From NCBI GenBank assembly GCA_965242725.1, contig CBDESZ010000011.1, positions 1 through 63,140 of the forward strand: a stretch of 63,140 bases of DNA, written 5' to 3'. A program made the position numbers. Within the stretch, counting starts at the first letter, position 1, and each line of letters starts with the position of its first letter. This document shows, piece by piece, positions 21,001-33,000 of the stretch. The DNA comes from Alkalispirochaeta sp. Lineage in GTDB: Bacteria > Spirochaetota > Spirochaetia > DSM-27196 > Alkalispirochaetaceae.

Positions 21001-24000
21001 TTCGTACAAAATCATTCTGCATGTCCACCACAATGAGAGCTGCCCGGGAACGGTCGAGATTGAAAGGACTACTTTTTTCACTCATAGTTACCGTCCTTCA
21101 CATCTATATCCTACCCCCTTGCCGGGTATCCCTCTTTGCAGATTTGGAGAAGGAGGCTTTGCAAAATCGGCAGGTCACACAGGCGGGGGCGGTGGTTTGA
21201 TTGGTCTCCCGTCGTGGTCAAGCACCCATTGTCGGGGAGTTCGTCCGCAGAGTTTCTTGAACGTACGGTAAAACGTAGAGAGATCCTCAAAACCGCTTGA
21301 GAATGCCGCGCCGACTATGGAGGATTGTCCGGAGGCCAATAACTTGCACGCGTGCCTGATGCGTCTCTTCTGCAGCCACGGAACAAAGGTCATCCCCGTA
21401 ATCTCTCGAAACAACTCGGAGAAACGACGAACCGATAGTGCACTTTCCCTCGCAGCTTGCTGTACCGACCAGTGTTCATATATCCGGCTTTCGATTTCGG
21501 CTATTACCGAGCGTATGCGCGATGATGCGGTCTGCCCCGTTTCCGTGGTCAGGAGATCATGGATAGCCAGGAGGGTCTCATCGACCTGCGCAAACAGGGC
21601 AAGGCGATTTCTCGGCAGCTCTGCGAGTTGCTGGAGACTCATAAGTTTTCGCCAGTGATGATTCAGGTCATCGATTTCGTGTTTAGTCTGCGGTTGGACA
21701 ACCCAGGGGCAGTTGGCCACGATACTCTCCCAGACGGAACGTCGGTCAATTGAAGAGGAAAGAAAGGTCTGCGACAGACAGAGAAGAAGAATCGTCGAGC
21801 CAGTCTCATCCCGAACCTGGTGTCTGATGTTCGCCGGAACGCAACTGTATGCACCTTCCGAAACGGTAAGACGTTCTCCCGAGTCTCCCAGAACCAGGTC
21901 AATCCGGCCACGAACTACGTGAAATATTTCATTGTACGGATCCAGACTCGGGACCATGTGAAATTCGGGACTATGAAGGCTTTCGGTCACGAGAACACCG
22001 GAAGACGGCAGCACGATTCGGACCGGTGATGATGACGACACCAACAACCTCCTTTTTCTGCCAAAATCACTATAGTATAACTGTGAACCGCCATCGGTTT
22101 CACGGGTATATGAAAATTAGAGAGGATGGTACTACCGGGACGGCCCGCGGGACGGGGTGTACATGCGCTGATCGGCGGATCACCGTCCGGGAAGCACGTA
22201 CGTTTTCAGGGGAGGAAAGCCGTTGAAGCTCACCGAGCTGTAGCTGTAGGTATAGGCGCCGGTGGTGAAGACGTAGACGCGATCACCCGTGGCGAGGGTG
22301 TCGGGCAATTCGTACTTGTAGTCCTGGTAGAGGACGTCCATGCTGTCGCAGGTCGGGCCGGCGAGTATCACGGGCTGCGCGATTCCCGTGCGCTCGGTGT
22401 ATATGGGGTACTTGATGAGCTCTCCCATCGTCTCAAGCATTCCGCCGAAGAGTCCGACGTCCAGATAGACCCACCGAAAGGGCGACACCTCGGACTTGCG
22501 GGAGGTCATCACCACCTCCGAGACGATCACCCCCGCATCGCCGACGATGGCGCGGCCTGGTTCGACGATGATCTGCGGCACCTCGTTCCCGAAACTGGAC
22601 CGGAGGTATTCGGCGATGGCCCGGGCGTACACCTCGATGTCGGGGGTGGGCTCGAGATAGTTGGCAGGGAATCCCCCTCCGAGATTGATCAACCCGAGGT
22701 TGATGGCGTGGTCGCGTTTCAGCGTCTCAAAGAGGTATGCGCATTTGGAGATCGCGTCGCCCCACTGGCCGATATCGCGTTGCTGGGAGCCGACGTGAAA
22801 GGAGAGCCCCCAGGGTGTCAGACCAAGGTCGCGCGCGAGAAGCGCGAGGCCCACCGTCACTTCAAGATGGGATCCAAACTTTCGTGAGAGCGGCCAGTCC
22901 GCCCCTTTGCCTTCAGTCAGCAGTCTGAAGCACACGCGGCAGCCCGGCGCACTCGCAGCCAGTTTGCGGAGATCCTCCTCGCAGTCGGTAACGTACAGGT
23001 CGACGCCGCGGTCGTGGAAATAGGCGACGTCGCGCTCCTTCTTGATCGTATTGCCGTAACTGATTCTCGCGGCGGGTACTCCCAGTGACAGGACCTGGTC
23101 GAGCTCGTACGGCGTTGCCACGTCGAAACTGGACCCGAGCTCTTTCAGGAGCAGAAGCACCTGGTCCATTGGATTGGCCTTGACCGCATAGTGCACCGTG
23201 GCAAAGGGCAGCCGGGACCTGAAGGTGTTGAACGCACGCTCCACAACTTCGAGATCCACGACGAGGAACGGCGTCTCGAGATTGGCAGAGAATGTCGCGA
23301 TTCGCCTCAGGCGCTCGGCCGGCATGAATCGCTCTACCGGGAAACTATACTGCTTAAGGACCTCGTTCATGTACGCGGTCGTCCGGTGCGGCACCGGACT
23401 GTCCACCACAAAATTTATACAGCGGATCGTGCAAAATCAAGCGGCGTCGATCCCGCCTTCACTAGCCCCGAGACGATACAACCCGCTATCGTTCTGCCTT
23501 CTTACCTACCGCGACGGCGAGGATGATAATGATTCCCCGAATGATCATCTGCTGGCTTACCGTGAGACCAGCTATAATGAGCCCGTTGTTTATCACCCCC
23601 ATGAGAAGTGATCCCATAATGGCGCCTACTACCGAGCCGGCTCCGCCGGAGAGCGAAGTGCCTCCAATGATAACCGCCGCAATTACCGAGAGCTCGTCCC
23701 CTTCTCCAAAAGTGAACCGGCCCGCCTGCATGCGCCCGGCGTAGAGAATCCCGGCGAGACTCGCGGCAATTCCAGAGATCGTGATCACCAGGAGTTTGAT
23801 ATTTCTGGTATTTACACCTGTATACGTAGCAGCCTGCTCGTTACCTCCGGTCGCGAGTACTCGTTTGCCGTAGGGTGTATGATTTAGCGTGTAATGGCCG
23901 ATCGCACCGATCACGATAGTCCAGAACAGGAGAATCGGTACGCCGAGGATATCACCCGAACCAAAGATGAAGTTGAAGCCTGGACTCAGGATCGGCACCG

Positions 24001-30000: not shown

Positions 30001-33000
30001 GTACTCATCTGTGGCGAAACGGGCGTCGGTAAAGAGCTCATCGCCGAACATATTCACCGCTCCTCAGCGAGACGAAGCAAAGTCCTCTCCAAAGTCAACT
30101 GCGCGGCGCTCTCGGAAAGCCTGCTCGACAACGAGCTTTTCGGTCACGAGAAGGGAGCGTACACCGGGGCCGATAGACTCTATCAGGGCATATTCGAGCA
30201 GGCCAACGGCTCCACGGTGTTTCTTGATGAGTTGGGTGACATGTCGCTTGCCATTCAGGCCAAAATCCTGCGGACCATACAGAATCGTGAAATCCGTCGG
30301 CTCGGTGGCAACGGCGTCATTCATGTGAACGTTCGTTTCCTCGGAGCAACGAACAAGAGCCTTGAGCAACTTATGGAGAGTGGAGAGTTTCGCCGGGACC
30401 TCTACTTTCGGCTTAGCGCCGGGATGTTCAATATTCCCTCCCTCCGCGAGCGCAGGGAAGACATCGCGCCTCTCGCTCAGTCGTTTGTGGATTCCTATAA
30501 CCGGGCAAACGATACGGAGTTTGTGCTCGGGGATAGCATAAAGGCGTTCTTCCAGACGTATCACTGGCCCGGAAACGTCCGGGAGCTGCAAAATGTAGTG
30601 AGCTTCGCGTGCGCTCTCTCCCGGACGCAAGAACTCGAGCCGCGAGACCTTCCTCCCTATCTCCACAAAAGCGGCAGGGGCAATACTTCTCTTCTGGAAA
30701 AGAGCGAACGGCAGACGATAGCGGCGACCTTGCGCGAGTACAACTACAATAAGGCTAAAGCTGCCAAGGCGCTTGGTATTAGCAGAACCACGCTCTACGC
30801 CAAGATGGAAAAGTATGGAATCGTCATCAAAGCTCGGCTTGAGTGAAAACTCGTTGCTCGCCGTTGAGGATGTCTCCTTGATCTTCAACGCCCGGGCGGG
30901 GCTGCACCATGTGGACCTGCACCTTGAAAGAGGCCGGATCTACGCGCTCTTCGGGGAGCACGGATCGGGCAAGACCACCCTGTGTGAGGTGCTCGCCGGC
31001 CTTGCGCAACCACAATCGGGGTCGGTTCGAATACACGGGAAGCCGACCCAGGGCTACACCTACGCCCGCGCTACCACGGCGGGTGTGCTGTTTGTTGATC
31101 AGGACGTGCTCCTCAACGAGAACATCACCGTCAACGATTTCTTCAACCTTCAGAATGCAGGTTACTTTCGTCACTTGTTCAGTTATCGCGGGCGGAACGC
31201 CAGGAAGGTAGGCAGGTTTCTCGACGATTACGGAATCGATATCTCTCCCACTGCTCTCATACGCAAGCTACCGATTCAGCAGCGCGTGCTCATATCCATC
31301 TTCCAGCGAATCTATCATGAACCGCTTGTGCTGATTCTGGATGAGAGCATCGACAAGCTTACCCTCGACAACAAGCGACTCGTCTATCGCGCGCTCCTGC
31401 GACTCCGGAAAGAGGGAAAGGCGGTCCTGCTGGCGACCCACGACACCCGGGATGTGTATGGTCTTGCCGATACCGTAGTCATCATGCGGGCCGGGGAAAT
31501 TGTCCTGCGCGAGTCGGTGAACCACATAGACGAGCTGAGTATCATTCGGATCGCCTATACCCAGGCCATGCAGGATAGCCGCGCCGGACGCTCAAACGCC
31601 GATTTCTACAGCCTGCTCAAGTTCAACCAGGCGATTCTCGAGCGCCTGCCGGTGGGGCTACTCATCCTCGACTACCGGGGTGTAGTTAAAAACGCCAACG
31701 CATCGTGTGAGCAGTTCTTTGGGGAGGACTCACTCAACGATAGAACCGTGGACGACCTCTTTGCCGGCAATCCGGCACTTCTCGACCGCCTTCGGAAGGG
31801 ATTTGAAAGTCGCACCGGCGTCTCTCTCATTGGCGTAACCTTTCAGATGGGAAGCGGCTACCTGACCCTCAACGTCGTCACCTACCCGGTGGTAGATGGA
31901 GATCACCTGCTCGGGCACGTCCTGATCCTCAGTGACGTCACCGAGCAGGAATTCCTCCGACAGAAGATCATCGTTTCAGAAAAGATGGCCGGCGTCGGGC
32001 TCCTTGCCGCCGGTGTCGCCCACGAGATTAACAATCCTCTGGAGGTTGTCATGAGCAGCTTGGACGCGATTAGACTCACCTCCTCGGAGGAGGACAAAGC
32101 CAAGTACCTTTCCTATATAGAGGAAGAGATTGACCGGATATCCAGGATCGTCGCCAATCTGGTCTCCTATGGCCGTACGGAACGCGACAATGGTGCCGTT
32201 GACACGATTTCCGTTGTACGGGAGGTCATCGCTTTGGTCGAACCCTACGCCCAGGCGCACTCAACGGAAGTCACGGTGGAGCTCCCGGATACCCCCCTTC
32301 CCCTCGTCGCCGTTAACGCTGCGGAGCTCAAGCAGGTTCTGCTTAACGTCCTCAAGAACTCCGTTCACGCCATCACCCATGAGAGGGGTCACATCCGAGT
32401 AATAGTCGCCCCCTCGAATGGACTTGATCGTATCCAAATCACTGTCGACGATAACGGGACGGGCATCGCTGAGGAGGCGCTGCAACAAGTTTTCATGCCC
32501 TTCTACAGCGCCGGACCACATGGCGGGTCGGGACTCGGCCTCTATATCTGTTACCAGATTCTCGAGAAACACGGCGGCTCGATCGAGTTCGTGAATAAGC
32601 GTTTGGGAGCGCGGTGCGTCATCGAGTTGCCCGCGGCGACTCTCACGGCGCGCCATGACAACTCATCCTCTATGTGAGAACATAGCGGACTGGACGGTGC
32701 ACCCTGACGGACCGTTCGGACGCCTACCGTAACCGCCCCTCCAGGGAGTACTCCGCCGCGGAATCATGGAGATACAGCGGCCGTACCTGGATAAAGTATT
32801 CTCCCGGTTCAAGATATTCTTCGATCTTGGCGTTCATGCCGTACCCGTCATCATCGCTGGAACGGATTTCCATCATGGACGCGTCGAAAAGCGTCATATA
32901 GGTGTCCACGTCCCCATAGGTTTCCACCGTCACCAGCTGACGCGCCGGTACATCGACCGTCTCGCCCGCGGGACCGGGAACCATGACGTGCGCCCAGTCG

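Follow-up and report, generated by a model that had tools for sequence, protein, structure and literature searches.

Our analysis identifies, in the window (the whole stretch of 63,140 nucleotides of Alkalispirochaeta sp. DNA considered here), a soluble sensor histidine kinase whose N-terminal domain groups with NBD1, the first nucleotide-binding domain in the tandem ATPases of CUT2 sugar importers (Table 1). Since the kinase carries a modified importer ATPase domain, and since it nearly always adjoins an importer together with a regulator that appears to activate that importer, it probably reads the importer itself. Literature searches showed no description of this architecture, and ABC goes unmentioned in the main text of a published overview of kinase architectures (PMC4558063); supplements, which lay outside the search, may list it.

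Table 1. Kinase, regulator and importer features in the window.
Feature	Position	Strand	Remarks
CUT2 permease (BPD_transp_2, RbsC/AraH type)	23486..24481	-	proposed docking partner
Tandem two-domain CUT2 ATPase, RbsA/XylG type	24441..25937	-	NBD1: intact Walker A, degenerate signature; NBD2: degenerate Walker A, LSGGNQQ
Levoglucosan dehydrogenase	26002..27189	-	NF052479, 663 bits vs cut-off 650
Sugar-binding protein (Peripla_BP_4) of CUT2 importer	27189..28355	-	
Xylose-isomerase-like TIM barrel (PF01261)	28370..29179	-	Pfam
Sigma-54 (-24/-12) promoter-like site	29243..29258	-	in front of catabolic/importer operon
NtrC/AtoC-type response regulator	29515..30846	+	REC, sigma-54 activator, Fis-type HTH; overlaps kinase start by 32 nt
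Soluble sensor histidine kinase, 620 aa	30815..32677	+	CUT2-NBD1-like ABC domain, linker helix, PAS, HisKA with H403, HATPase_c
ABC domain of kinase	about 30854-31522	+	CUT2-NBD1-like
PAS of kinase	about 31625-31948	+	Pfam matches under cut-off

The kinase and the ancestry of its ABC domain

The genome-wide survey's note had described a soluble NBD-PAS-HisKA-HATPase kinase whose gene overlaps that of a sigma-54 regulator, and both statements hold: the reading frame is intact, and Pfam places ABC_tran at residues 30-178 (E 3e-19), HisKA at 396-456 and HATPase_c at 503-607, all over cut-off, as well as PAS at 271-378, where three PAS models match with E-values of 3e-4 to 3e-3, each under cut-off. 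Hydropathy averaged over 19 residues peaks at 1.35, which indicates that neither a membrane nor a periplasmic sensor is present. The best NCBIfam matches of the N-terminal part are CUT2 ATPases (e.g., YtfR, LsrA and AraG), and that of the PAS-HisKA-HATPase core is AtoS (212 bits, well short of the 646 required). Among 165 non-redundant full-length relatives, which share 23-39% identity with the Alkalispirochaeta kinase, the phospho-accepting H403 is invariant, as the note had held for a smaller sample, and so are N515, D546, G548, G550, G573 and G575 (H-box His and N, G1, F and G2 boxes; each 165/165). By these motifs the protein is a class I (HisKA), NtrB-like sensor histidine kinase, of which the PAS is the part that varies most (34% identity). 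An assembly or frameshift artefact is excluded, because one sample, run twice, gave contigs that cross the fusion without a differing letter, and because all 165 relatives share it. Two low-quality loci (L043 and L186) have frameshifts inside the ABC domain.

KSB3 genomes hold up to 5-6 kinase paralogues each, most of them adjoining their own importer. A genome-wide locus scan returned family members at only 4 of 80 loci, the rest being mostly ordinary kinases, and with the NBD alone as query the homologues were mostly ATPases. The family profile, applied to 21 candidates per genome, detected no full-length member in 61 genomes belonging to the same class as a Bellilinea genome, none of 3599 matching plasmid records covers 80% of the kinase protein, and there was no RNA holder among the matches listed.

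In a FastTree phylogeny of 167 domains, 54 of the 55 sampled kinase domains form one clade (support 0.97) beside NBD1, which suggests that the domain derives from NBD1 of the tandem ATPases and not from NBD2 or other ABC families; the deeper nodes are weak, so that single-domain CUT2 ATPases could also be its source. Recent copying from the adjoining importer is rejected as its origin, since the NBD1 of that importer ranks 19th of 47 at the median. The kinase domain diverges faster than the adjoining NBD1 (mean identity 37% vs 43%). The predicted domain (pLDDT about 90 across most of residues 11-240) matches the LptB, MacB and FtsE domains, and has an ABC fold with Walker A, Q-loop, Walker B and H-loop.

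The expectation that the nucleotide site is largely kept was borne out for Walker A (G47 161/165, G52 159/165, K53 159/165), Q-loop (Q96 135/165) and Walker B (D176 161/165, E177 146/165), but the H-loop His, which the note had found in nearly all of a smaller sample, is retained in just 115/165 of the wider sample (H209). All six nucleotide-site residues are present in the Alkalispirochaeta copy and in 95/165 members family-wide, while at least one is missing in 70/165. The ABC domain of the kinase resembles NBD1 of RbsA, XylG, AraG, YtfR and LsrA in fold, Walker A and B, Q-loop, degenerate signature and the linker helix following the domain, but differs in that (i) NBD2 is absent, so that the signature is supplied neither by the domain itself nor by a fused NBD, (ii) the Walker A Asn is replaced by His, (iii) the D-loop Pro-Thr and the signature Gln are lost, with the cis nucleotide residues kept, and (iv) PAS-HisKA-HATPase is fused to it. 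The signature reads LPIQQ here and L-[SNP]-L-S-[DE]-R in the family. Since the domain groups with CUT2 NBD1, and ordinary CUT2 NBD1 domains likewise lack LSGGQ (LTVGDSQ in the window's own importer ATPase), the broken signature is inherited and is not a mark of special decay; this weakens the earlier worry that it betrays a nucleotide sensor that does not dock. The loss of the D-loop Pro-Thr is, by sequence comparison, a new change relative to NBD1: Pro-Thr is found in 97-100% of 133 CUT2 NBD1 and NBD2 domains, whereas the kinases have [AIS]-L-E-K-L. One kinase clade has lost the Walker B Glu, too. The ABC domains probably bind ATP and hydrolyze it slowly or not at all, and the idea that the kinase reports transport as ATP turnover is doubtful in view of these losses. 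The permease-facing segment A..GI..V.Q is retained (G90 75%, I/V91 94%, Q96 82%).

Linkage to the sigma-54 regulator and to CUT2 importers

The sigma-54 regulator proved to be the constant neighbour it had been taken for: by rule it adjoins the kinase in 73/75 loci, the two misses being frameshifted kinases beside which the regulator is still there, and distances of kinase core and regulator are correlated with a rho of 0.90. By rule, 41/44 well-flanked kinase loci have a CUT2 importer no more than 9 kb away (42/44 on inspection), as compared with 2/36 other kinases of this genome and 1/50 other-kinase loci, although these counts overstate independence because the loci are related by kinship. 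The earlier wording ‘always’ is too strong, since L038 and L220 lack an importer and L048 has a HAAT/Liv importer. HAAT is the sole other importer type seen, and its permeases belong to the same Pfam family as those of CUT2; at L220 both importer and sigma-54 site are absent within about 9 kb. All CUT2 importers of the well-flanked loci (41/41) have a tandem ATPase, which rules out that the kinase domain substitutes for an absent one; four nearby importers (at L039 and L158, and two at L047) have single-domain ATPases. Distances of kinase core and permease are hardly correlated (rho 0.08), and the catabolic genes differ among loci; the kinase-regulator pair has evidently moved among distant CUT2 importers and almost never left the importer class. 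In one clade, a second permease copy (74-75% identical) adjoins the kinase with neither ATPase nor binding protein beside it.

In the window, the importer placed beside the kinase by the earlier note is indeed of CUT2 type, with the correction that its operon is divergent and also holds the TIM-barrel and dehydrogenase genes. LgdB1 and LgdB2 are described, in the part of PMC10066097 that concerns us, as PF01261 members adjoining LgdA, and from its context the TIM barrel may be an LgdB-type keto-sugar eliminase/dehydratase. The operon looks like one for levoglucosan uptake, which makes this sugar, or an anhydro- or keto-sugar related to it, the probable inducer. The promoter-like site in front of it is the sole match in the window at one mismatch or fewer, and is not significant alone, since 1.27 matches are expected by chance window-wide. 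Across related loci, the importer strand carries such a site at the corresponding position in 52/61 regions against 0.3 expected, and the other strand in 0/61; to find predicted sigma-54 promoters facing the importer operon is new here. Judged by sequence only, the two-component system controls the importer genes, the regulator appearing to activate the sigma-54 promoter ahead of the importer and catabolic operon.

Possible modes of sensing

It is tempting to speculate that the locus constitutes a four-part inducible uptake circuit, in which, on a minority of the CUT2 permease dimers, the two NBD1-derived domains of a kinase dimer would engage the cytoplasmic coupling helices where the tandem ATPase usually sits. 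A sugar-loaded binding protein docking outside would shift the permease and thereby move the two ABC domains, with ATP bound and hydrolysis probably slow or nil, so that binding protein and permease act as the receptor; the movement would pass through the linker helix to the PAS and switch the kinase, and the regulator would then switch on the sigma-54 promoter ahead of the importer and catabolic operon. On the sequence and model evidence, we give about even chances to the idea that the importer is sensed by a kinase dimer docked where the permease would otherwise bind the motor. Somewhat short of even are those of the wider proposal that the dimer is an alternative ‘motor’ subunit which makes the importer a transmembrane receptor, is portable across CUT2 importers and has acquired a dedicated permease copy in some lineages. 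For docking speak the near-confinement of the mobile kinase-regulator pair to one importer class, the second permease copy in one clade and the many paralogues beside their own importers, which a global signal would explain poorly; against it, each importer's own tandem ATPase would compete for the permease, the kinase domain diverges faster than the adjoining NBD1, L220 has no importer nearby, and the PAS could carry the signal instead.

The coupling to the importer proposed in the survey's note draws indirect support from the linkage with its controls, the sigma-54 sites, the kept permease-facing motif and a weak predicted complex. The latter, of NBD and permease dimer, scores 0.44 against 0.00 for the best control, a band shared by 18/157 solved complexes and by both passing mismatches, and a cousin of the real ATPase can pass by likeness; at least 87% of the contacts recur from run to run, with a partner pLDDT of at least 78. 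No PDB entry was found by sequence for a CUT2 permease or a close tandem ATPase, and none of the structures among the matches listed contains both the ABC and the kinase half. Without one clade and the ambiguous loci, NBD-permease co-variation (partial Mantel 0.31) drops to 0.11, and to 0.004, whereas that of real NBD1-permease pairs stays at 0.43-0.50. We hence reject mirror-tree support for docking, which looked strong at first and survived jackknife and thinning yet is carried by one clade beside two-permease importers; the NBD tree shows this clade as a single group, the core tree does not resolve it, and it counts as one event because it is defined partly by its motifs.

The kinase might pair with the importer ATPase rather than with the permease, its NBD1-like domain contacting NBD2, which would give LSGGN, or binding the intact complex in one state, so as to report flux as in Pst-PhoU-PhoR or MalK-MalT. 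The retention of E177 and H209 in most relatives, as though a partner could offer the signature, and the ubiquity of the tandem ATPase at well-flanked importers are in line with this, as is the partial Mantel value of 0.26 for kinase NBD versus NBD2 (0.08 versus NBD1), but the NBD2 signal disappears without one clade, the kinases have lost the D-loop with which two NBDs close on each other, NBD1 should outcompete the kinase domain through its covalent link to NBD2, and the single-domain ATPases of four nearby importers fit poorly; we regard such pairing as rather unlikely. Of similarly low, if slightly lower, probability is a free cytoplasmic sensor, the PAS of which binds the imported sugar or its product while the ABC domain checks the energy state by binding ATP/ADP, comparable to the N-terminal domain of KdpD, and for which the importer is no more than the regulated target. 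The missing membrane segment, the nearly universal Walker A Lys, a PAS variable enough to fit varied ligands, the lack of robust co-evolution with the permease and the importer-less L220 are what one would then expect; left unexplained, however, are the pair's loyalty to CUT2/HAAT importers while moving among them, the kept permease-facing motif and the weak predicted permease contact. Quite improbable is a reading in which a kinase gene once fused with a neighbouring importer gene and the ABC domain persists as a relic or passive membrane tether, with no signalling role: some relatives have decayed nucleotide-site motifs and two low-quality loci have the domain frameshifted, but it is full length in all 165 divergent relatives and has family-specific conserved motifs, and the Atlas offers, as a lead, further ABC_tran-HisKA combinations.

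Relation to known transporter-dependent kinases

A Bce-type module consists of an intramembrane kinase, a BceAB-type transporter and an OmpR-type regulator, and BceS is a membrane kinase touching a separate transporter in the membrane. As outlined in the relevant passages of PMC6978683 and PMC11109136, the ABC transporter of BceAB-BceS/BceR is the sensor for a kinase governing the transporter's own genes, which resembles the present proposal of an ABC transporter as sensor of a kinase that would control transporter genes. An ABC domain is not part of BceS, however, whereas the kinase described here carries an NBD and falls outside the Bce-type modules, having no membrane segment, a CUT2 sugar importer and a sigma-54 regulator. 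PhoR, in turn, is membrane-anchored and without NBD, while our kinase has an NBD and no anchor. In the account of PMC6978683, as far as it treats the system, PstSCAB-PhoU-PhoR/PhoB has a kinase without periplasmic sensor that reads the ABC importer from the cytoplasmic side, and depends for this on PhoU, an adaptor that binds PstB. No PhoU-like gene was recognized among the annotated part of the neighbours. NtrB/AtoS with NtrC/AtoC share the PAS-HisKA-HATPase core and the sigma-54 partner, but here the input region is an ABC domain and a membrane anchor is absent. In MalK-MalT, a transporter part controls the regulator of the uptake genes, MalK being a working motor that binds a transcription factor. 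The transporter-dependent kinases known to us contact their transporter via membrane helices or an adaptor. In SLC5-STAC kinases such as CbrA, a transporter part is fused to the kinase (PMC11109136, in the section dealing with them); CbrA fuses a membrane carrier and not an ATPase domain.

If the docking proposal is true, permease coupling helices that drive a kinase rather than a motor would represent a new route of signalling, with an ABC ATPase domain reused as signal input. It would account for the ability of sugar-fermenting spirochaetes and KSB3 filaments to distinguish many sugars by means of soluble kinases, and would provide a transferable component with which any CUT2 binding protein could be made into a sensor.

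As a lead only, we mention that the Atlas contains other clusters that link ABC_tran with HisKA, including Actinomycetota ABC-GAF-kinase clusters.

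A kinase built on an importer-type ABC domain

The soluble protein encoded in the window belongs to the HisKA kinases. The top named matches of its N-terminal part are ATPases of CUT2 (ribose-type) monosaccharide importers, and the remainder is AtoS-like, with a score below the AtoS cut-off. A 19-residue hydropathy maximum of 1.35 implies that the kinase is devoid of a membrane segment, and in its AlphaFold model a confidently predicted ABC fold is joined by a linker helix, a PAS fold and the kinase core. Among the matches listed in a structure search, either half was covered and none spanned both; the fusion itself is spanned by contigs of two runs of the same sample with zero letter differences.

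Features of the kinase-regulator locus in the window
Feature	Position	Strand	Basis or remark
Soluble histidine kinase, 620 residues	30815-32677	+	ORF
ABC_tran	residues 30-178		Pfam
PAS	residues 271-378		weak Pfam matches
HisKA	residues 396-456		Pfam
HATPase_c	residues 503-607		Pfam
REC-sigma54-HTH regulator	29515-30846		gene overlapped by kinase gene
Sigma-54 promoter-like site	29243-29258	-	64 bases before first operon gene

Pooled searches and the first loci yielded 169 full-length family proteins, 165 of them at <90% identity; these are 23-39% identical to the window's kinase, with all kinase boxes intact (H403 in 165/165), and fall into two subfamilies, whose Walker A reads GEHG in one and GEHR in the other. 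Matches of full or nearly full length turn up in at least 13 of 400 further genomes of the phylum (three candidates scored per genome) and in 7 of 9 KSB3 genomes, each of these seven holding 2 to 6 paralogues. Treponema, Sphaerochaeta, Spartobacteria and KSB3 are among the named records, which makes a spirochaete the probable host of the window's kinase. In databases the proteins go under 'ATP-binding cassette domain-containing protein' or plain kinase, and in the ESM Atlas they form a cluster of 62 whose name was assigned automatically. Literature searches, over mainly open-access papers, showed no description of an ABC-PAS-HisKA-HATPase kinase, and the term 'histidine kinase' is absent from the main text of the KSB3 genome paper (PMC4312070). 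The family is real and conserved, and apparently an undescribed variant of transporter-coupled signalling, probably similar in working mode to BceAB-BceS and PstSCAB-PhoU-PhoR, as PMC6978683 and PMC11109136 portray these, and a member of neither.

Of the 55 kinase domains placed in a 167-domain tree, all but one group together (0.97) next to NBD1, the first ATP-binding domain of tandem CUT2 ATPases, and separately from the second, NBD2; deeper nodes are weak. Compared with 133 CUT2 ATPases, the kinases have largely retained the cis contacts to nucleotide (K53 in 96%, D176 in 98%, E177 in 88%, Q96 in 82%, H209 in 70%) and likewise the A..GI..V.Q segment, the permease-facing part in importers. 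With H209 at that level in 165 proteins, the H-loop conservation of the genome-wide survey's note (95 of 102) proved too high for the wider family. All six nucleotide-site residues are complete in the window's copy and in 95 of 165 family-wide. Since ordinary CUT2 NBD1 also lacks LSGGQ (the window's own tandem ATPase has LTVGDSQ there), its loss in the kinases is inherited. Two losses are new: the D-loop Pro-Thr, present in 97-100% of both CUT2 domains, has become a charged L-E-K-L motif, and the invariant signature Gln is gone. The kinase lacks two defining features of an active ABC motor, and the combination of kept cis residues with a missing D-loop and signature Gln suggests that ATP may be bound without normal sandwich-dimer hydrolysis. 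In one NBD clade, that beside two-permease importers (L033, L037, L139, L176, L179, L182, L198, with L038 and L162), the A-loop aromatic is gone and the Walker B Glu mostly so.

Linkage to CUT2 importers and sigma-54 promoters

The fetched loci contain 121 annotated kinase genes, which merging at 90% identity reduces to 91. In 73 of the 75 loci whose flank suffices, the gene immediately upstream of the kinase is that of the regulator; both exceptions are frameshifted kinases with the regulator still there. Among the 44 loci flanked by 7 kb on both sides, 41 have a CUT2 permease and ATPase at most 9 kb away, as do 57 of the 65 loci where one side reaches 7 kb, as against 2/36 other kinases of the window's genome and 1/50 other-kinase loci; these counts are not independent trials, given the kinship of the loci and the bias of the metagenome scan towards one subfamily. 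All 41 importers have a tandem ATPase of their own. The first of the three exceptions, L186, does have the importer, with a broken permease frame, and L038 keeps a perfect sigma-54 site, the orthologous importer starting another contig of the same genome. At the third, L220 (9077-16592), [FeFe]-hydrogenase genes lie upstream of the pair and tuf follows it, and the 20 kb contain no importer and no sigma-54 site. At L048:856-5845 the importer that the pair faces is of the HAAT/Liv type, and the sigma-54 site is perfect. Two complete kinase-regulator-importer modules adjoin, back to back or in tandem, at L062, L149, L192, L197 and L212. An ORF at L062:1-921 combines collagen-like repeats with a type VI secretion Hcp domain, and L052:13696-16332, near a kinase module, encodes a chemoreceptor (MCPsignal) whose C-terminal domain is a sugar-binding Peripla_BP_4.

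In the window, the importer operon runs divergent from the pair and encodes, besides the tandem ATPase and the permease of the CUT2 importer, its sugar-binding protein, a TIM barrel of PF01261 and a dehydrogenase whose 663 bits exceed the cut-off of 650 for levoglucosan dehydrogenase. As this resembles the usual levoglucosan cluster of LgdA, PF01261 enzyme and ABC importer, as given in PMC10066097, levoglucosan or a relative is the likely substrate. The sigma-54 site is the sole window match with at most one mismatch (window-wide chance expectation 1.27). Across family loci, 42 of 48 divergent regions and 10 of 13 downstream ones carry such a match on the strand of the importer, 52/61 altogether, against 0.3 expected from shuffled sequence and 0/61 on the opposite strand; the pair therefore very probably induces the importer. 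An inverted repeat (29445-29465; 7-base arms, 7-base spacer), some 190 bases upstream of the window's site, is a possible activator-binding site. Convergent with the kinase lies a 579-aa ORF (32724-34463) whose N-terminus is signal-like and which gives repeated matches to the pre-peptidase C-terminal (PPC) domain.

How the kinase may sense the importer

The likeliest reading, though in our judgement an even call, is that the kinase dimer docks on the permease dimer as a motor substitute. Its two ABC domains would then replace the motor, and binding protein plus permease would serve as its receptor. The components, their motifs, the linkage and the promoter pattern are established, whereas docking, nucleotide binding, the inducer and the direction of the putative switch we infer. 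A predicted complex of residues 11-252 with the permease dimer, scoring 0.44 vs 0.00 for the best of three controls (contact agreement at least 87%, partner pLDDT at least 78), weakly supports docking: the mark was reached by 116/157 solved complexes and 2/215 mismatches, the band up to 0.60 holds just 18 solved complexes and both mismatches, and a cousin of a true ATPase may pass through likeness. Domain-specific co-variation with the permease carries little weight, because it falls from 0.31 to 0.11 without the clade beside two-permease importers and to 0.004 without ambiguous loci. That the kinase instead contacts the importer's working ATPase is rather unlikely. We consider it very improbable that the ABC domain is a relic.

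Kinase and regulator evolve together (rho 0.90), whereas the kinase does not evolve with the importer (rho 0.08 between permease and kinase core; importer subunits reach 0.32-0.53 among themselves for the main pairs). Partner permeases are interspersed with non-partner ones, close permeases pair with either kinase subfamily, and enzymes encoded beside the pairs indicate many different sugars. The pair appears to be a module moving freely among CUT2 importers, almost never outside the class, with up to five or six copies per genome. Such behaviour favours a physical match to the importer over an energy signal of global kind. A free sensor acting via PAS and nucleotide is unlikely.

In another clade (L143, L144, L146, L152) an extra CUT2 permease gene directly follows the kinase gene on the opposite strand, closing, where flank is readable, a sugar-catabolic operon without ATPase or binding protein. 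Its product is 74-75% identical to the importer's own permease in L144 and L152, and it is absent from the relative L137; this single event could have produced a dedicated signalling permease.

Other ABC-kinase arrangements

P0324, a protein record of 851 aa, is a longer variant in which the ABC domain is accompanied by two matches to HisKA and, at the C-terminus, a HATPase. Other ABC_tran + HisKA clusters in the ESM Atlas, possibly independent fusions, measure 826 and 852 aa (commonest taxon Actinomycetota; scores 0.84, leads only), one of them with GAF_2, and a further one 515 aa. At L050 (G000:C7 13071-15950), in the window's own genome, a separate ABC ATPase gene overlaps by one base the start of a 709-aa kinase gene, an arrangement that is not a fusion but from which such fusions could arise.
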